UHGV virus genome: UHGV-0043901
Reading direction: 5' to 3' (one strand)
DNA length: 9,047 bases
Origin: a virus
Within the stretch, counting starts at the first letter, position 1; the number at the start of each line of letters is the position of its first letter. Under the pieces are notes generated by a model. That model saw nothing but the letters and a program-made list of their open reading frames with translations, ran no database searches and was not told the DNA's origin. The position numbers and the translations under genes are program-made. Shown piece by piece: positions 50 through 8,440 of the stretch.

Positions 50-1288
50 ATGAGCAGCGCAATTCATAGACTTAGCGACACTCTTTTACGAAAATTAAGC
101 GGATCACCAACCACAAAAAACGCCTTTTTTAATGACGGTGGCAATCTTAGCGTAAGACATTCCACCAGCGGCCTGTTAACCTGGTATTTCACTTACAGGG
201 CCGGAACTGGTAGGCAGATATCACCGGAACGTCTGAGGCTGGGCAATTATCCCGATCTGAGCCTGAAAGCTGCCAGGGAAAAAGCGGCACAGTGTCGCGC
301 CTGGCTGGCTGAGGGGAAAAATCCGCGCTATGAACTTAATCATGCTGTACAGGACGCGTTAGCCCCCGTGACGGTTAAGGAAGCGCTCACTTACTGGCTT
401 GAATCGTACGCAAAGGAAAAGCGCACTGACTACGAATCACTGAAAAGCCGGATCAATAAACACATAATTAGCCAGATTGGCGCTATGCCACTGGAAAAAT
501 GCGAGCTACGCCACTGGCTGGCCTGTTTTGACCAGCTTGCTAAGCGTAATCCGGTATCAGCCGGATTTTTGCTACAGGTATGCAAACAGGCGCTTAAGTA
601 CTGCCGAAAACGACGATACGCAATCAGCAACGTTCTTGATGATATGGTTGTCGGTGATGTTGGGAAAAAAGCAGAAATAAGCGAGCGCGTACTAACAAAC
701 AAGGAGCTTGGGGAATTACTACGCGCCCTGGATGAAAAAATTTACCCACCGTACTACAGCGCCATGATTCGCCTCCTGATTGTCTTCGGATGTCGTACCA
801 CTGAGCTAAGACGCTCTGAGGTCCAGGAATGGGATTTTAAAGAAATGCTCTGGACCGTGCCGAAAGAACACAGCAAAACGAAGGTAGCAATATTCAGGCC
901 AATACCGGAAGCGATCTTGCCGTTCTTAACGAAGCTGGTGGAGCAGAACAGGCACACGGGATTATTGCTCGGAGAACTGAAAGGGCAATCATCCGTATCA
1001 GAGTACGGAAGAACGGCACACAGACGCATTAATCAAGCCCCCTGGACGTTGCACGACATCCGGCACACGTTTACAACGATGCTGAACGATTTAGGCGTGG
1101 ATCCTCATGTAGTGGAGCAGCTTACCGCGCACCAGTTGCCAGGAATGCAACGAGTCTATAATCACTCCCGTTATCTTGATGCAAAACGTGACGCTCTTAA
1201 TCTATGGGTTGAGCGTCTCGAGCTTCTCCAGAACAATGATGAAAAAATCGTTGTTATGACCCCGCGAATTTACTCCCAAAATTCTTGA
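50..1288 (+). CDS. int: Tyrosine recombinase / site-specific integrase, P4-like family (N-terminal arm-binding DUF4102-type region plus C-terminal catalytic domain)
   Basis: 412-aa ORF; N-terminus LSDTLLRKL...LSVRHSTSGLLTWYFTYR...LRLGNYPDLSLKAAREKA matches the P4-integrase N-terminal pattern; C-terminus has HDIRHTF (His-x-x-Arg-His) and a downstream Tyr in RVYNHSRY consistent with tyrosine recombinase catalytic residues. Confidence 0.9.
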   Translation: MSSAIHRLSDTLLRKLSGSPTTKNAFFNDGGNLSVRHSTSGLLTWYFTYRAGTGRQISPERLRLGNYPDLSLKAAREKAAQCRAWLAEGKNPRYELNHAVQDALAPVTVKEALTYWLESYAKEKRTDYESLKSRINKHIISQIGAMPLEKCELRHWLACFDQLAKRNPVSAGFLLQVCKQALKYCRKRRYAISNVLDDMVVGDVGKKAEISERVLTNKELGELLRALDEKIYPPYYSAMIRLLIVFGCRTTELRRSEVQEWDFKEMLWTVPKEHSKTKVAIFRPIPEAILPFLTKLVEQNRHTGLLLGELKGQSSVSEYGRTAHRRINQAPWTLHDIRHTFTTMLNDLGVDPHVVEQLTAHQLPGMQRVYNHSRYLDAKRDALNLWVERLELLQNNDEKIVVMTPRIYSQNS

Positions 1289-1486: not shown

Positions 1487-1698
1487 ATGCCAAATGACGA
1501 CATTTTTTGTTGCGTCGCTTAAAAACTCGTGACACGATTTTAAACACTAACGAGCTTCTACGAACCTTAGCGAACAAAGCCTTTAGCATGGTTGTGTTTT
1601 TAATTTAAGAGGTGAAAAAGAATCTAAGTAATATCCGATCTCATATATCTACAGCTAAGAGAAAAGTTTATATACGTAATTTTTATGTAGGTTTTTGT

Positions 1699-1908
1699 AT
1701 GCGTGAAATAAATGAAGATCGTGTAATCCGCGAAAAAGAATGCAGAGAGCTAACAGGCGTTTGCCGCACAACTCGTTACGAGATGGAAAAGCAGGGCCGC
1801 TTCCCCTCACGTATCAGTCTCGGCGGTCGTTCTGTTGGCTGGGTTAAGTCTGAGGTTATGGAATGGGTTAAAAGCAGAAATCGTATTAATTCAGGTAAGG
1901 CAGCGTAA
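1699..1908 (+). CDS. alpA: AlpA-family phage transcriptional regulator (winged helix / MerR-like HTH)
   Basis: 69-aa product from the internal ATG at 1699; RELTGVCRTTRYEMEKQGRFPSRISLGGRSVGWVKSEVMEWV matches the AlpA signature (LTG-S-T-Y ... FP ... LGGRSV-W-SEV-EW). The ORF-track start at 1612 is a GTG with the Shine-Dalgarno abutting it, so the shorter form is preferred. Confidence 0.8.
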   Translation: MREINEDRVIREKECRELTGVCRTTRYEMEKQGRFPSRISLGGRSVGWVKSEVMEWVKSRNRINSGKAA

Positions 1909-2888: not shown

Positions 2889-3188
2889 ATGAGAACATAT
2901 TTATCTGGCTTGACTGCCAGCGGTTATGCACACCCCAAAATTATCCCCGGCGCTATTTATCTGGATAAGAACGGTAACAGAGTAACGGTAAAAGAACTGA
3001 TGTTTGACCGTGTTTATTTTATCCGTGATGGATATTCATTTCTTAGTTCGCTGAACGTGGAGATCTTTATTTGCAGATTCCGGCGGGAAATCCCGACTTC
3101 CAGAAATAACCATGTGTCATGTATGGATGTTGATAAAAAACTACAGGAACTAAAAAACATGATTGCCGCGTGGAGAGAGCAGAAATGA
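2889..3188 (+). CDS. Hypothetical protein (99 aa), translationally coupled to the primase gene
   Basis: Stop TGA at 3186-3188 overlaps the primase ATG at 3185-3187 (ATGA overlap). Confidence 0.5.
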   Translation: MRTYLSGLTASGYAHPKIIPGAIYLDKNGNRVTVKELMFDRVYFIRDGYSFLSSLNVEIFICRFRREIPTSRNNHVSCMDVDKKLQELKNMIAAWREQK

Positions 3189-5002
3189 AAAAAGCGCCAA
3201 ATTTAAAACACCAGCCACGTGACAAAATGACGGAAGTCATCATTTTTGCGGGTAGTGATGCGTGGGCACATGCGAAGCAGTGGCAGGAACAGGACGGGCG
3301 ACTGGCTGGCGACAGCGTGCCTCCTGTCTGGCTTGGAGAGCAACAACTTGCCGAACTGGACAACCTGCAAATCGTACCGGACGGACGCTATCGCGTGCGT
3401 CTCTACCAGGCGGGGTTATTGCGTCCGGGGCTTGTTAATACCATCGGGCAGAAACTGGCAGCGGCAGGTGTCAGGGATGCTGATTATTACCCTGAAGGAA
3501 TGCACAGCCAGAAACGGGAGAACTGGCGCGAATATCTGGAACGTGAACGGGCAGAGCAGGCGGAAAAGAAAAAGGTAGTTGAACTGCCTGTAAAGAAAAA
3601 AGAGCGGGTAAAAGACGATAACGCTTCATCACTGGCGCTTAACCAGATGGGAGCAAGTCAACGCGGCGAAGTTCTCCTGGCACATTATGGCGGTGAACTG
3701 GCGATTCATGCTGACTCTGACACTGTTCACTATTACAACGGCGTTGTATGGGAGCCAGTACAGGATAAAGAATTACAGCGAGCTATGGCACAGATTTTCA
3801 TTGATGCGGAGATCAGCTATTCGCAGAACGCCATTAAATCGGCGGTCGATACCATGAAGTTAAGTTTGCCTGTAATGGGGAATACAGCCCGTAACCTGAT
3901 TGGATTCAGTAACGGTGTTTTTGATACCCGGACAGGCGATTTTCGGGAGCATAACAAAAACGACTGGTTGTTAATTGCCAGTGAATTACCTTTCAGCCCA
4001 CCAGCAGAGGGGGAAACGCTGGCAACACATGCGCCGAATTTCTGGAAGTGGTTACGCCGTTCGGTGGCTGAGAATGACCGCAAGGCGGATCGCGTACTGG
4101 CTGCATTATTCATGGTGCTGGCGAACCGGTACGACTGGCAGTTATTCATTGAGGTAACAGGTCCAGGGGGAAGTGGTAAAAGCGTGATGGCGGAGATTTG
4201 CACCATGCTGGCGGGTAAGGCCAACACAGTATCGGCAAGCATGAAGGCGCTGGAAGATGCAAGGGAACGCGCGTTAGTGGTTGGCTTTTCGCTGATTATC
4301 ATGCCGGATATGACCCGCTACGCTGGTGATGGGGCAGGGATTAAGGCTATTACAGGCGGTGACAAGGTGGCAATTGACCCGAAACACAAAGCCCCCTACT
4401 CAACGCGTATTCCGGCAGTAGTGCTGGCGGTTAACAATAACGCCATGTCATTCAGTGACCGCAGCGGGGGGATCTCACGTCGTCGGGTGATATTCAATTT
4501 TTCGGAAGTTGTACCGGAGAACGAACGCGATCCAATGCTGGCGGAAAAAATAGAAGGTGAGCTGGCGGTAGTGATTCGCCATCTGCTTACACGGTTTGCT
4601 GACCAGGACGAAGCCAGACGCCTGTTATATGAGCAGCAGAAATCTGAAGAAGCACTGGCGATAAAGCGAGAGGGGGATTCGCTGGTGGACTTCTGCGGCT
4701 ATCTCATGGCGTCGGTAATGTGTGATGGTCTGTTAGTGGGTAATGCTGAAATTGTGCCATTCAGCCCACGCAGGTATCTCTATCATGCCTATCTGGCTTA
4801 TATGAGGGCACATGGGTTTGGTAAACCTGTAACACTGACGCGCTTCGGTAAAGATATGCCGGGGGCAATGGCGGAATATGGCAGGGAGTATATGAAACGG
4901 AAAACGAAGCACGGTTTTCGTTCAAACGTGACACTGACGGAGGAATCAGAAGACTGGATGCCATCATGTGTATCGGTCACTAATGACGATAGTAAAAATT
5001 AA
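3185..5002 (+). CDS. Replication initiator: P4-alpha / D5-type primase-helicase with P-loop NTPase (SF3-like helicase) domain
   Basis: About 605 aa from ATG 3185 (GGAGAG Shine-Dalgarno 7 nt upstream; the track start at 3170 is in frame). Walker A GPGGSGKS encoded at 4160-4183; downstream hydrophobic strand plus acidic residues (LIIMPDM) consistent with Walker B; lies immediately upstream of an iteron array. Confidence 0.88.
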   Translation: MKKAPNLKHQPRDKMTEVIIFAGSDAWAHAKQWQEQDGRLAGDSVPPVWLGEQQLAELDNLQIVPDGRYRVRLYQAGLLRPGLVNTIGQKLAAAGVRDADYYPEGMHSQKRENWREYLERERAEQAEKKKVVELPVKKKERVKDDNASSLALNQMGASQRGEVLLAHYGGELAIHADSDTVHYYNGVVWEPVQDKELQRAMAQIFIDAEISYSQNAIKSAVDTMKLSLPVMGNTARNLIGFSNGVFDTRTGDFREHNKNDWLLIASELPFSPPAEGETLATHAPNFWKWLRRSVAENDRKADRVLAALFMVLANRYDWQLFIEVTGPGGSGKSVMAEICTMLAGKANTVSASMKALEDARERALVVGFSLIIMPDMTRYAGDGAGIKAITGGDKVAIDPKHKAPYSTRIPAVVLAVNNNAMSFSDRSGGISRRRVIFNFSEVVPENERDPMLAEKIEGELAVVIRHLLTRFADQDEARRLLYEQQKSEEALAIKREGDSLVDFCGYLMASVMCDGLLVGNAEIVPFSPRRYLYHAYLAYMRAHGFGKPVTLTRFGKDMPGAMAEYGREYMKRKTKHGFRSNVTLTEESEDWMPSCVSVTNDDSKN

Positions 5003-5289: not shown

Positions 5290-5535
5290 ATGACAGCGAA
5301 GCACACAAAAAAATCACAATCGCACGCCCTTGATTTGACGGAACACTGGTTAAGGGTGTCGATAAAAATCATCGACCGCAACGCGGGGGAAGGATATGCG
5401 AAAGCACATCCCGAACTGATTAGCGCATTCATGACAACGGCAGCTGCAAACTTTGCCACGCTGACAGAACGGGAGATTGCCGAAGCGGAACAGGTGACAA
5501 CCATCAACGTTAAAACCAGTGAGGTGGAATCATGA
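5290..5535 (+). CDS. Hypothetical protein (81 aa) coupled to ssb
   Basis: Stop TGA at 5533-5535 overlaps the ssb ATG at 5532 (ATGA); weak Shine-Dalgarno, no recognisable motif. Confidence 0.4.
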   Translation: MTAKHTKKSQSHALDLTEHWLRVSIKIIDRNAGEGYAKAHPELISAFMTTAAANFATLTEREIAEAEQVTTINVKTSEVES

Positions 5536-5942
5536 CAGCACAGATAGCAGCTTACGGGCGGCTGGCAAGTGACCCGCAGTTAAAGACCACCAGCAAGGGC
5601 ACACAAATGGCTATGGCGAGCATGGCGGTCCCCCTGCCGTGCAGCCAGTCGGATGACGGTCAGGCGACGATGTGGTTATCTGTTCTGGCGTTTGGCAGAC
5701 AAGCCGACGCGCTGGCAAAGCATCACAAAGGCGAACTCCTGAGCGTGGCGGGTAACATGCAGGTGAGTCAGTGGACTGGACAGAACGGTGAAACGCGGCA
5801 GGGCTGGCAGGTTATCGCAGACAGCGTAATCAGTGCGCGAACGGTGCGACCGGGCGGGAACAGACGCAAAACCACAGGCACACAGGGTAATCAGCCACCA
5901 GCGGGAGACGATGACCCCTACGGTGATGATATTCCGTTCTGA
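5532..5942 (+). CDS. ssb: Single-stranded DNA-binding protein (OB-fold SSB) with canonical acidic C-terminal tip
   Basis: 136 aa; N-terminal IAAYGRLASDPQLKTTSKGTQMAMASMAV and conserved Trp and Lys-Gly positions fit the SSB OB fold; Gly/Gln/Pro-rich linker; C-terminus DDDPYGDDIPF ends in the DDIPF tail also seen in E. coli SSB. GAGGTGG Shine-Dalgarno. Confidence 0.8.
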   Translation: MTAQIAAYGRLASDPQLKTTSKGTQMAMASMAVPLPCSQSDDGQATMWLSVLAFGRQADALAKHHKGELLSVAGNMQVSQWTGQNGETRQGWQVIADSVISARTVRPGGNRRKTTGTQGNQPPAGDDDPYGDDIPF

Positions 5943-5950
5943 ACGCACAG

Positions 5951-5973
5951 GCCGGAGAAAATCCGGCTTTTTG
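5951..5973 (+). terminator. Rho-independent terminator (GCCGGA-GAAAA-TCCGGC plus T5)
   Basis: 6-bp GC-rich stem with 5-nt loop and TTTTT tail, 9 nt after the ssb stop. Confidence 0.7.
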
Positions 5974-5984
5974 TATCCAAAAAA

Positions 5985-6021
5985 AGCCCGATAAGTACAG
6001 GAGGAAGCTTATCGGGCTTTT
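5985..6021. terminator. Second hairpin (AGCCCGATAAG - 12 nt loop - CTTATCGGGCT) flanked by an A-run upstream and T-run downstream; possible bidirectional terminator
   Basis: 11-bp perfect stem at 5985-5995 / 6008-6018, A6 at 5979-5984 and TTTT at 6018-6021. Confidence 0.4.
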
Positions 6022-6095
6022 GCTTACGAGGTTAACAGCATGGTGACTACTGTTGCTGTAAATCATTTCATAATTTGCAACGTAACTCAATTTTA

Positions 6096-6123
6096 TTGCA
6101 CAAAATGCAATCATGATTATAAT
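6096..6123 (+). promoter_or_regulatory. Candidate sigma70-type promoter for the head-gene operon (TTGCAC - 16 nt - TATAAT), overlapped by a 14-bp perfect palindrome ATGATTATAATCAT (6113-6126)
   Basis: -35-like hexamer at 6096-6101 and consensus -10 at 6118-6123; the palindrome embeds the -10 and is a candidate operator. Confidence 0.4.
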
Positions 6124-6157
6124 CATAACTGGATGAACATACAGTTATGATTTTTTA
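6122..6157 (+). promoter_or_regulatory. AT-rich hairpin (ATCATAACT - 12 nt - AGTTATGAT) followed by a T6 run in the 5' leader of the head operon; possible attenuator / terminator
   Basis: 9-bp exact inverted repeat at 6122-6130 and 6143-6151, then TTTTTT at 6151-6156, between the putative promoter and the first Shine-Dalgarno (AAGAGGA at about 6163). Confidence 0.3.
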
Positions 6158-6179
6158 AGTCAAAGAGGAATTTCTGACT

Positions 6180-6386
6180 ATGGCAGAAGAGAAAAAAGGC
6201 GGTGTTTCGGTGTACATAAGCCCCGAAATCGTGGAGGTGCTCAAGCAGCGCCACAAAAAAAACTATGAGGCTGGCGTGGCGGCTGGACTGGATCCGCTGA
6301 TGACGCCGGAGCCGTCGATAGGTTCACTTGTGCGCTCTTATTTACTTGCGGCGCTTGGGATGCATAAAAATTATGGGGGTGAATAA
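6180..6386 (+). CDS. Small protein (68 aa), first gene of the head operon; possibly ribbon-helix-helix-like
   Basis: Strong Shine-Dalgarno AAGAGGA; stop TAA overlaps the capsid ATG (TAATG at 6384-6388); pattern VSVYISPEIVEVLKQ then helices is compatible with a ribbon-helix-helix fold, but this is weak. Confidence 0.5.
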   Translation: MAEEKKGGVSVYISPEIVEVLKQRHKKNYEAGVAAGLDPLMTPEPSIGSLVRSYLLAALGMHKNYGGE

Positions 6387-7441
6387 TGGCAGGCAAAGCA
6401 ACGGCACTTAACACTAACCAGCTTTTTGCGTACCTGAATCGCGGGGATATTGCGGAATTTAAATTCAGTCCGCTGTTTACCACGCTGTTTTTCCCGAACG
6501 TGGCGACATTCAACACCCAAAACATCATGCTGGACACCCTGGACATTGAAGAGGTTACGATGTCGGCGTTTTGTTCGCCTATGGTGGGTAGTCAGGTCCA
6601 GCGCGATAAAGGGTACGAAACCAGCACGATTAAACCTGGATACATGAAGCCGAAGCACGAAATCGATCCAACGAAAACCATCATGCGTATGGCTGGAGAA
6701 GATCCGGCACAGCTTAATGACCCAACCTATCGCCGTATGCGCCTGATTACTGGCAACATGCGCCGCCAGATAAACGCGATTAAAGCGCGCGTGGAATGGC
6801 TGGCGGTGAATGCGGTAACGACCGGAAAAAACATCATTGAGGGCGAAGGCATAGAACGCTATGAAATCGACTGGAAGATACCGGAAAAAAACATCATAGA
6901 GCAGGCCAAAGGCCGTAAATGGTCCGAGCAGGACAAAGAAACCCACGATCCAATCTATGATATCGAGCTTTATGCGGATCAAGCAGGTTGCCCCGCCAAC
7001 GTCATGATCATGGGCGCTGAGGTATGGCGAACGTTACGCAGCTTTAAAAAATTCCGCGAACTGTACGATCTTTCCCGTGGTTCAGAGTCCGCCGCCGAAC
7101 TGGCCTGTAAAAACCTGGGCGAAGTGGTGAGCTTTAAAGGCTATCTGGGCGATATTGCCCTTATCGTCTATTCCGGCAAATACACTGACAGCGACGGCAC
7201 AGAAAAATATTTCCTTGAGCCTGATTTGCTTGTCCTGGGCAACACCAACAATAAAGGGCTGGTGGCCTATGGTGCGATTATGGATCAGGACGCAGTAAGA
7301 ACGGGCGCAACGCAAAACATGTTTTACCCGAAAAACTGGATTGAGGACGGCGATCCGGCGATTGAGTACGTGCAGACGCACAGCGCACCGCAGCCGGTTC
7401 CGGCAGATATTCGCAAATTTGTTACCGTCAAAATTGGTTAA
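6386..7441 (+). CDS. Major capsid protein, lambda gpE family
   Basis: 351 aa versus 341 aa for lambda gpE, with blocks matching the recalled gpE sequence: FKFSPLFTTLFF (gpE FKFDPLFLRLFF), SPMVGSQV (SPIVSGEV), PGYMKPKHEIDP (PGYVKPKHEVNP), EDPAQLNDPTYRRMR (EDPQNLADPAYRRRR), WSEQDKETHDP (WSKRDKSTYDP), YPKNWIEDGDPA (YPKNWVTTGDPA). GGGGGTG Shine-Dalgarno. Confidence 0.9.
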   Translation: MAGKATALNTNQLFAYLNRGDIAEFKFSPLFTTLFFPNVATFNTQNIMLDTLDIEEVTMSAFCSPMVGSQVQRDKGYETSTIKPGYMKPKHEIDPTKTIMRMAGEDPAQLNDPTYRRMRLITGNMRRQINAIKARVEWLAVNAVTTGKNIIEGEGIERYEIDWKIPEKNIIEQAKGRKWSEQDKETHDPIYDIELYADQAGCPANVMIMGAEVWRTLRSFKKFRELYDLSRGSESAAELACKNLGEVVSFKGYLGDIALIVYSGKYTDSDGTEKYFLEPDLLVLGNTNNKGLVAYGAIMDQDAVRTGATQNMFYPKNWIEDGDPAIEYVQTHSAPQPVPADIRKFVTVKIG

Positions 7442-7452
7442 CGGGGGATTCT

Positions 7453-7788
7453 ATGGACACTCCATACATTGAGTTATTTGCAGGCAGTCAGCAGGTCGCC
7501 ACGACGCTGGTACATTTTGCCGCTGATGCTGGCGTTATTCAGGAATTTACCCCGCTGATGCTGGCGGACAATGGCGAGTTTAAGCCGTGGGATGGTAAGG
7601 AATCTGGCAAGGCTGTTTATCTGACCTCGTACCCTGTTGACACGTCAAAGCAGAAATCAGCACAGTGTTACAAGATGGGGATATTCAATATTGCCGCCGT
7701 TAACTGGCCTGAGAGCGTCGACACCGATGCGAAAAAATGCGCCGCCTTTGCGGGTTCTGGCGTATCCGTTCAGCCGCTGGCCCGATAA
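7453..7788 (+). CDS. Head decoration protein, lambda gpD family
   Basis: 111 aa versus 110 aa for gpD; shared TPLML, WDG, YK-G-F, WPE, D-x-KK-x-AFAG-x-x-S blocks with recalled gpD; GGGGGAT Shine-Dalgarno; immediately follows the capsid gene. Confidence 0.75.
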   Translation: MDTPYIELFAGSQQVATTLVHFAADAGVIQEFTPLMLADNGEFKPWDGKESGKAVYLTSYPVDTSKQKSAQCYKMGIFNIAAVNWPESVDTDAKKCAAFAGSGVSVQPLAR

Positions 7789-7800
7789 GCAGGGGGAACG

Positions 7801-8214
7801 ATGGCAACGAATGAAAGCATCATGACGCTACCGCTGGCGAGTAAATTTAAAGCCGAAGCGCGGGCAATGGCTGACAGAGGGTTATCAACCTACGAGGCCA
7901 TATATCAACTTAACAAACTGGAAGAGCAGGACAAGCCGCGCGCTGATGCGATTATGGCGCTTGATGAATCTGGCGACTATCAGCCGCTGTTACGTGCAAT
8001 GGCAAACGTGCCTTGTATCGATGTTGGTACGGCTAAAAGCATCCTTAGCATGACCATAGAGCAGGAACGTCTGAAGGTTGCGCCGGAACTTACCGCAGCC
8101 TTTGAAAACTTTATGGACATGCACAGCCCGCAAGCCGTATCAGCTGGCATGGCATACGATGGCAGAAACCAGGGCGATGACGGCGACATCGATCGCATAC
8201 TGAAAACCATCTGA
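7801..8214 (+). CDS. Hypothetical protein (137 aa), last gene of head module, no recognisable family
   Basis: AGGGGGAA Shine-Dalgarno 3 nt before the ATG; acidic, protein-like composition; followed 6 nt later by a strong terminator. Confidence 0.55.
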   Translation: MATNESIMTLPLASKFKAEARAMADRGLSTYEAIYQLNKLEEQDKPRADAIMALDESGDYQPLLRAMANVPCIDVGTAKSILSMTIEQERLKVAPELTAAFENFMDMHSPQAVSAGMAYDGRNQGDDGDIDRILKTI

Positions 8215-8220
8215 GACAAG

Positions 8221-8242
8221 GCCGGAGAAATCCGGCTTTTTT
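8221..8242 (+). terminator. Rho-independent terminator (GCCGGA-GAAA-TCCGGC plus T6), near-identical copy of the 5951-5973 terminator
   Basis: Same stem sequence as the terminator after ssb, loop one A shorter, T6 tail. Confidence 0.7.
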
Positions 8243-8244
8243 AC

Positions 8245-8440
8245 GGGTCCTTCCTGGAATTATGGCCCGTTACGGGGCGGCGACCTCGCGCGTTTTCGCT
8301 ATTTATGAAAATTTTCCGGGGAAAATCATGTCGGTACTTCTCGAACATAACTATTTGTTTTTTCTAATATCGAATCCGTAAAAGGTCCGACATGAAAACG
8401 CCTGAAAAAGTCATTTTCGGGCACTCTCATGTCGGCCCCT
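8245..8440 (+). other. cos site (cohesive-end packaging site): cosQ-like region, cosN (GGGCGGCGACCT at 8275-8286) and cosB with three R-like sites
   Basis: 8245-8319 is nearly identical to the recalled lambda cos region (GGGTCCTT-CC...TTACG GGGCGGCGACCT CGCG-GTTTTCGCTATTTATGAAAATTTTCCGG). Downstream R-site positions are collinear with lambda R3-I1-R2-R1, but the repeats read CATGTCGG (8327-8334, plus), CCGACATG (8387-8394, minus), CATGTCGG (8428-8435, plus) instead of lambda CGTTTCC. Distance from cosN to the terS ATG (188 nt) matches lambda (cos to Nu1, 190 nt). Confidence 0.85.

Follow-up and report, generated by a model that had tools for sequence, protein, structure and literature searches.

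A predicted LexA operator at the promoter of the capsid operon in an EcCICFT073-type phage-inducible chromosomal island

What controls the capsid operon of a phage satellite, and does its leader answer to the late genes of the helper or to the state of the host? The question is raised by a 9,047-nucleotide (nt) stretch of the UHGV virus genome UHGV-0043901 (the whole of the analysed stretch, called here the window), which is a Gram-negative phage-inducible chromosomal island (PICI) of the EcCICFT073 type. The features by which a PICI is recognised are all found, namely int, an alpA-like gene, a primase/replicase, a lambda-type cos site, a terS-like rpp gene, unidirectional genes and a size of ~10–15 kb. 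Region 6060–6180 is the promoter-operator and leader of the operon that comprises orf68, a capsid-E-like gene, a gpD-like gene and a gene for a protein of 137 amino acids (aa). A preliminary description had likened this leader to lambda pR′–tR′, a late promoter followed by a hairpin whose read-through would need Q-type antitermination or the release of a repressor, and had proposed that capsid and TerS expression could thereby be timed to helper late-gene activation. The analysis presented here points, with a probability of roughly 0.7, to a sigma-70 promoter of the PICI capsid operon that is repressed by host LexA and insulated by two terminators. The core of the hairpin is most likely a LexA operator, so that the capsid operon would be switched on by the SOS response and not by antitermination.

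All the parts on which the preliminary description was built, that is, TTGCAC-16-TATAAT, the 14-bp palindrome, the 9-bp stem, the T6 run and the Shine-Dalgarno sequence, were recovered by direct reading and with an inverted-repeat tool, and its assignment of the leader to the head-gene operon of a satellite is supported. The upper part of the hairpin, AACTGGATGAACATACAGTT, fits the form of the Escherichia coli SOS box, an imperfect 20-bp palindrome whose AT-rich centre keeps CTG and CAG 10 bp apart. A heterology-index matrix was built from 18 documented E. coli LexA boxes (PMC3009722, Table 4). On this matrix, the site has an index of 6.56 on the plus strand and 5.95 on the minus strand, compared with 5.2 for recA, 6.5 for ruvA, 6.6 for uvrB and 8.3–9.3 for polB, dinG, dinB and ftsK. 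The leave-one-out index of the genuine boxes extends from 0.6 to 12.8 and the site falls inside this range, its score being equal to that of genuine LexA sites. The second-best LexA-like site in the 9-kb window has an index of 14.9, and an index of 6.6 or below is reached at random with a frequency of 5e-8 to 6.5e-7 per position, that is, ~0.001–0.01 expected occurrences in the window on both strands. In strain K-12, LexA-binding sites form a low-index peak near 7.3 and the background peaks near 22 (PMC12527982). The site is identical to the recA box at 16 of 20 bases, and with the ruvA box it has both arms (CTGGAT..ATCCAG) in common. Its first base is 4 nt beyond TATAAT, and the predicted transcription start falls inside it; where a gene depends tightly on LexA, an overlap between box and start site is typical (PMC8072944). 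LexA is thus predicted to bind at the start and to repress the promoter, and release of a repressor, one of the two routes offered in the preliminary description, is very probably needed.

The leader block as a whole is clearly under constraint. Its nucleotide diversity (6062–6179; 81 distinct haplotypes anchored on a downstream motif) is 0.065, whereas the spacer 6024–6061 has 0.199 and the third codon positions in the two genes that follow have 0.135–0.204. The CTG-N10-CAG motif is kept across E. coli variants, with a best-strand index of 5.2–9.2, the exceptions being one insertion and one deletion. Of 87 loci anchored on nothing but the capsid gene, 85 have the SOS box, as do all 29 related metagenome contigs extending as far as the site; in that metagenome scan, which was anchored on the upstream motif, unrelated chance matches had an index of 12.9 or worse. 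Strain CFT073 carries the same leader, with AACTGGATGAACATCCAGTT as its box. L130, which carries the label Salmonella enterica subsp. diarizonae, and L134 are two distant loci with flanks unrelated to the E. coli family and a first open reading frame (ORF) only 53–55% identical; they keep in register TTGCGA-16-TATAAT, the palindrome ATGATTATAATCAT and CTGGAT-N4-ATCCAG. Their box, GACTGGATGAAAATCCAGTA, has an index of 6.7 and is the best site in those 8-kb loci. The window itself differs by C6141A, which gives the right half-site the consensus sequence ATACAG and the box a better LexA score while creating a mismatch in the middle of the stem, so that the hairpin is weakened. In some haplotypes (for example L131, 3948–3967) the centre of the box and hairpin (6135–6138) reads GTTC and not GAAC, an exact reverse complement, as though the loop had been flipped between the inverted arms.

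The position of the box relative to the promoter bears directly on antitermination. The promoter by itself is unremarkable: its −35 hexamer matches at 3 of 6 bases, which explains its omission from the stock scan listing, and a relaxed weight matrix ranks it sixth in the whole window and first among plus-strand sites in 5980–6160. TATAAT is invariant bar one TGTAAT variant in sequence sets anchored outside the hexamer. Standard sigma-70 geometry, 6–8 nt past the −10, predicts transcription to start at ~6129–6132. According to the Q-type scheme, this promoter would be followed by a leader terminator, made of the hairpin and T6, that is read through by means of an antiterminator such as helper Q. 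The inverted repeat and T6 are indeed real and conserved, this PICI type is helped by lambdoid phages that encode Q (PMC6092414), and in CFT073 (L222, 12371–49001) a lambdoid prophage at icd with a quuD antiterminator gene lies ~10 kb from EcCICFT073. However, the 5′ arm of the hairpin (6121/6123–6135) overlaps the −10 hexamer, and RNA begun at ~6129–6132 is therefore without that arm. The full hairpin of the window folds as RNA with −12.2 kcal/mol (z = −4.5) and needs RNA begun upstream of 6121, whereas RNA from 6130 has only −0.7 kcal/mol (z = +0.8) and no stable structure. The stem-loop does not lie wholly within the transcript of the predicted start, as a leader terminator should, and a weight-matrix scan of 5980–6160 found no stronger upstream promoter that would place it there. 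The stem is moreover AU-rich and, beside the T-run, mismatched in about half of the haplotypes.

Two further results argue against the same scheme. The divergent locus L215 (1180–1300) has CTTTTTGTTGTGTTTG in place of the right half of SOS box and hairpin, and retains the −35 hexamer, a −10 that reads TAAAAT, the arms of the palindrome, the T-run and the Shine-Dalgarno sequence; the T-run is thus not tied to the hairpin, and L215 may be a natural operator-less variant. A sensitive blastn search with 6040–6200 gave no match in 50,697 phage records, and hence no sign that the leader mimics a helper late promoter. On the overlap with the −10 and the absence of phage similarity, Q-type antitermination was rejected as highly improbable. 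The lambda-like read-through of the preliminary description is not upheld, and its timing by helper late-gene activation gives way to the host SOS response, with LexA cleavage as the most likely timing signal.

A different transcriptional role for the hairpin has more in its favour. Besides or instead of acting as a LexA operator, the hairpin with its T-run could be a third terminator that stops transcripts of the early and replication operon and thereby insulates the late one. When transcribed from upstream, it folds with −11 to −18 kcal/mol in most relatives, the main haplotypes and L130, and U5–U7 follow. The extended repeat has the SOS box as its upper stem and a conserved AATCA/TGATT base, kept as AAUCA/UGAUU in the RNA even in L130 and L134, where the 3′ arm is displaced by a 1-nt indel, and changes that compensate one another occur in the lower stem of a few haplotypes (TCAGGA..TCCTGA, for example). 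The TGATT/AATCA motif occurs in three copies (6114, 6121 and 6148), the last of which precedes the T-run and is kept in L130 and L134 despite its shifted position. Yet two much stronger terminators stand 100–180 nt upstream, and the lower-stem pair 6126/6147, compared in 61 sequences (58 of them related), is an uncompensated G.A mismatch in 26, with U-A in 24, U.G in 5 and G-C in 2; the upper stem shows no informative variation among the compared sequences. The AU-rich stem base, to which U6 adjoins, is unfavourable for termination, and the hairpin is absent from the stock terminator scan listing. Termination would also leave the CTG-N10-CAG core unexplained, which has a chance of ~1 in 64 or less given the hairpin. 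A third terminator is accordingly a minority possibility, although an appreciable one.

The two stronger terminators define the unit on which LexA is predicted to act. Terminator 1 (−14.2 kcal/mol, z = −3.7) is present in relatives. Terminator 2 (−22.1 kcal/mol, z = −6.1) has invariant stem arms and a loop that varies across relatives, and forms the 5′ boundary of the conserved late module, since the BLAST homology of diverged islands starts there. Two upstream terminators together with this homology edge indicate that the late module is an insulated transcription unit. On the minus strand, terminator 2 has the better T-run (T7). An Rfam scan found no family at gathering score; its weak sub-threshold matches, driven by terminator 2, include the anti-small-RNA (anti-sRNA) families AgvB (18 bits, gathering 56) and AgrB (19 bits, gathering 40) on the minus strand of 5979–6077.

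Three dyads lie close together at the promoter, one over the −35 (ATTGC-N7-GCAAT), one over the −10 (TGATTATAATCA) and, as the third, AATCA-N22-TGATT. They raise the possibility that the palindromes are operators for another factor of the PICI or helper (for example the 68-aa protein, AlpA or PerC), the likeness to LexA boxes being coincidental. The dyad over the −35 reads GTTGC-N7-GCAAC in L130, where both outer positions have changed together, and GTTGC..GCAAT in L215; it is a candidate operator for a further factor. The conserved part of the −10 palindrome is its 12-bp core TGATTATAATCA, which is invariant, and the outer pair varies among the same 61 sequences (A..T 25, A..G 15, C..G 13, C..T 4), the full 14 bp being perfect in L130 and L134. 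Farther upstream, the block AAATCATTTCATAATTTGCAAC, which includes the palindrome TTGCAA (6075–6080; repeat tool), is nearly invariant among E. coli haplotypes and is kept as AAATCATTTCATAATTTACAAC in L130 and L134. A gene for a PerC-family regulator lies directly 5′ of terminator 1 and the late leader in many relatives, CFT073 included (L002 6357–6629, L004 6731–7003, L131 3487–3759 and L222 1–208).

However, the window has no perC, ssb lying directly upstream instead, and still keeps the leader. The alpA promoter region shares no motif with the leader; a common AlpA operator was rejected on finding one shared 8-mer, fewer than in shuffles. The 68-aa protein, modelled with AlphaFold2 at a predicted local distance difference test (pLDDT) score of 72, consists of two helices, gave no significant match in fold comparison and has no recognisable DNA-binding fold, and was likewise set aside as a ribbon-helix-helix autoregulator. 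With a LexA score far beyond chance, control by such a factor in place of LexA appears improbable. The scans also flagged a minus-strand promoter, TTGACT-16-TATGTT (6163 to 6136), which is treated as a chance match because its hexamers decay to TCGACT/GATGTT in most relatives. Other known sites fared no better. Resemblance to an FNR site (TTGAT-N4-ATCAA compared with ATGAT-TATA-ATCAT) extends to 8 of 10 bases, for which ~4 chance matches are estimated in the window. For the TTGCA motifs, a sigma-54 promoter (TGGCAC-N5-TTGCA) and a lambda CII site (TTGC-N6-TTGC) were dismissed by eye on spacing or orientation, as was, on spacing, the Fur-box likeness of GATAATCATTTC.

Several points weigh against LexA control of the operon. 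The index values are approximate in absolute terms, the matrix having been reconstructed from 18 sites and not being the original published one. The left half-site has G as its fourth base (CTGG) where T is usual, as is also the case in ruvA, cho and dinG. In L215 the right half-site is missing, and a 1-nt insertion interrupts the box of another locus. Because the E. coli relatives are close to one another, the invariance of the box among them is limited evidence, and cross-lineage support comes from L130 and L134 only. The palindrome outruns the 20-bp box by AATCA/TGATT, an extension that LexA leaves unexplained, together with the T-run and the two dyads over the −35 and −10. Finally, deletion of the capsid or decoration gene was without phenotype in published work (PMC6092414). 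The unexplained features suggest a second regulator or a secondary terminator role of the long hairpin. They could be accommodated by a multi-input switch with LexA at +1, one or two further factors on the −35 and −10 dyads and a palindrome that doubles as an RNA terminator for early-operon read-through, in which case the capsid operon would fire only when SOS and helper signals come together; this composite arrangement is given a small chance.

Under LexA control, the sigma-70 promoter would initiate at ~6130. In an undamaged cell, a LexA dimer on the operator across the start would block initiation, and terminators 1 and 2 would halt read-through from the AlpA-driven early and replication genes. 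DNA damage would activate RecA, promote self-cleavage of LexA and derepress the capsid operon, and since the same signal induces a lambdoid helper prophage, the two events would coincide. SOS-controlled satellite operons are known in staphylococci, and no report was found for E. coli satellites, for which such control is predicted here from sequence. Published control of Gram-negative PICIs is by helper-dependent AlpA only, and a LexA operator on the capsid operon would add a second, host-derived input. The prediction is testable in the established EcCICFT073 system. It bears on the effect that SOS-inducing antibiotics have on satellite gene expression, and offers SOS without helper as a condition in which a phenotype of the capsid-operon genes could be sought.

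The features of the window are collected in Table 1, in which gene calls derive from Pfam and PHROG scans.

Table 1. Genes and regulatory features of the window, in order of position.
Feature	Position	Strand	Sequence, evidence or remark
Tyrosine integrase	50–1288		Pfam/PHROG
AlpA/excisionase-like protein	~1612–1908		Pfam/PHROG
DUF4222	2889–3188		Pfam/PHROG
D5-type primase-helicase	3170–5002		Pfam/PHROG
SSB	5532–5942		Pfam/PHROG
Intrinsic terminator 1	5949–5972	+	GGCCGGAG..AATCCGGC then T5; directly after ssb; terminator scan
Intrinsic terminator 2	5980–6023		A7 run, stem GCCCGATAAG/CTTATCGGGC, T4; bidirectional look
AT-rich conserved block	6060–6081	+	AAATCATTTCATAATTTGCAAC; ~−70 to −50 from predicted start
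Dyad over −35	6095–6111		ATTGCA-N5-TGCAAT; inverted-repeat tool
−35 hexamer	6096–6101	+	TTGCAC; TTG conserved; TTGCRY in variants; TTGCGA in L130 and L134
Perfect 14-bp palindrome centred on −10	6113–6126		ATGATTATAATCAT; read directly
−10 hexamer	6118–6123	+	TATAAT; 16-nt spacer after −35
Extended inverted repeat	6121–6152	+	Arms 6121–6135/6138–6152, 15 nt, 93% complementary; inverted-repeat tool
Hairpin, 9-bp stem	6123–6131/6142–6150	+	TCATAACTG/CAGTTATGA; read directly
Predicted LexA operator (SOS box)	6127–6146		AACTGGATGAACATACAGTT, CTG-N10-CAG; ~−3 to +17 of predicted start
T6 run in 5′ leader	6151–6156	+	Conserved as T5 to T7
Shine-Dalgarno sequence of gene 1	6163–6169	+	AAGAGGA; core invariant; ATG at 6180
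68-aa protein (operon gene 1)	6180–6386	+	phrog_3255
Lambda gpE-like major capsid homologue	6386–7441	+	Pfam Phage_cap_E, 1e-51
gpD-like decoration protein	7453–7788	+	Pfam HDPD, 3e-17
137-aa protein	7801–8214	+	Operon member
Terminator-like hairpin	8221–8245	+	GGCCGGAGAAATCCGGC then T6; read directly; not in terminator scan list
Lambda-type cos site	~8240–8320		cosN-like string TTACGGGGCGGCGACCTCGCG, just upstream of terS-like gene
terS-like (rpp) gene	8463 onward		Pfam/PHROG

The extent of the operon bears on what its leader could time. The 68-aa ORF ends in a stop codon that shares bases with the capsid start codon (TAATG, 6383–6388), an arrangement suggestive of translational coupling. The PHROG scan of the genes in 6386–8214 gave a match to phrog_1999. 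The 137-aa protein, which could be a scaffold-like remnant, is similar in residues 45–119 to head maturation protease families at their C-terminal end (phrog_53, E = 3.8e-8). The hairpin at 8221–8245 probably ends the capsid operon; with its T6 it is nearly the same as terminator 1. It is followed by the cosN-like string, which we take to match lambda cosN. The terS-like gene lies behind this terminator and cos and may therefore fall outside the capsid operon. In L003 and L005, a second terminator-plus-cos-like copy (ACGGGGCGGGAGGCGCGG) is found between ssb and the late leader, a position at which the window and CFT073 have none. In the early region, a 244-aa ORF (1835–2569, TTG start) matches PHROG transcriptional repressor families over its C-terminal 60–90 residues, and in relatives the corresponding region is annotated with Icd-like proteins.

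The element occurs in a near-identical E. coli chromosome (L001), where it spans ~11 kb between fragments of an interrupted tqsA; in CFT073 the same late module adjoins phoQ. A 501-bp query around the leader matched 617 of 5,426 complete E. coli genomes (~11%), among them CFT073 and many O157:H7 strains, and a related query also matched Nissle 1917 and ATCC 25922. In contigs representing one genome per species, the capsid query found zero relatives and the leader DNA pattern only chance matches in unrelated taxa, and a capsid search of viral contigs for distant relatives returned almost nothing beyond the same E. coli family.

Among the closest known systems is EcCICFT073, the model Gram-negative PICI (PMC6092414, PMC6739421), with which the window shares the gene order int, alpA, DUF4222, primase, ssb, orf68, capsid, decoration, 137-aa gene, cos and rpp, differing in its D5-type primase and in having no perC. 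The EcCICFT073 literature deals with AlpA-dependent induction and with Rpp, and does not cover control of the capsid operon (PMC6092414, PMC6739421); alpA itself shows no SOS response (PMC6092414). In the Gram-negative PICI literature searched, LexA is mentioned only through citation of the SaPI (Staphylococcus aureus pathogenicity island) paper and capsid-operon control is not described. The same literature yielded no LexA binding or expression data for the leader site, and its main texts nothing usable on late-gene expression of c1498–c1500 or Sakai Sp7 after mitomycin C.

With lambda pR′/qut/tR′ the leader shares a strong −10, a promoter-proximal inverted repeat followed by T residues, a place ahead of head genes and lambdoid helpers. 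Unlike in lambda late control, its hairpin overlaps the −10 and lies outside the transcript, no Q-binding or pause element is identifiable in the leader, and it has no similarity to phage late regions. The lambda late terminator is located ~190 nt downstream and not at +1. The chromosomal SOS operators of E. coli, especially those of ruvAB (CGCTGGATATCTATCCAGCA), cho and recA (TACTGTATGAGCATACAGTA), have the same 20-bp layout and a comparable index and overlap the promoter and start site, as the box of the window is predicted to do. The box of the window differs from these in residing on a mobile satellite, before genes for virion-protein homologues, and within a longer palindrome, with a T-run behind it and two other dyads alongside.

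The closest functional precedent is found in the SaPIs, whose operon I, encoding capsid remodelling, packaging and terS functions, is LexA-regulated (Ubeda 2007, as cited in PMC3152322). That control was demonstrated by experiment, whereas control in the window is predicted, and the terS-like rpp gene of the window perhaps lies outside the operon. The two systems belong to different host phyla and use different operators, a Gram-positive LexA motif in the SaPIs as opposed to the E. coli CTG-N10-CAG, and their genes are unrelated, cpmA, cpmB and terS on the one hand and a lambda E-like capsid gene, a gpD-like gene and two others on the other. Despite these differences, in both a satellite operon of the morphogenesis or packaging type would be placed under host LexA while early genes answer a helper-specific signal, and SOS induction of the helper would coincide with derepression of the satellite operon. 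If the prediction is true, the two-signal logic of the SaPIs has been reached in this E. coli satellite with unrelated genes and a different LexA motif.

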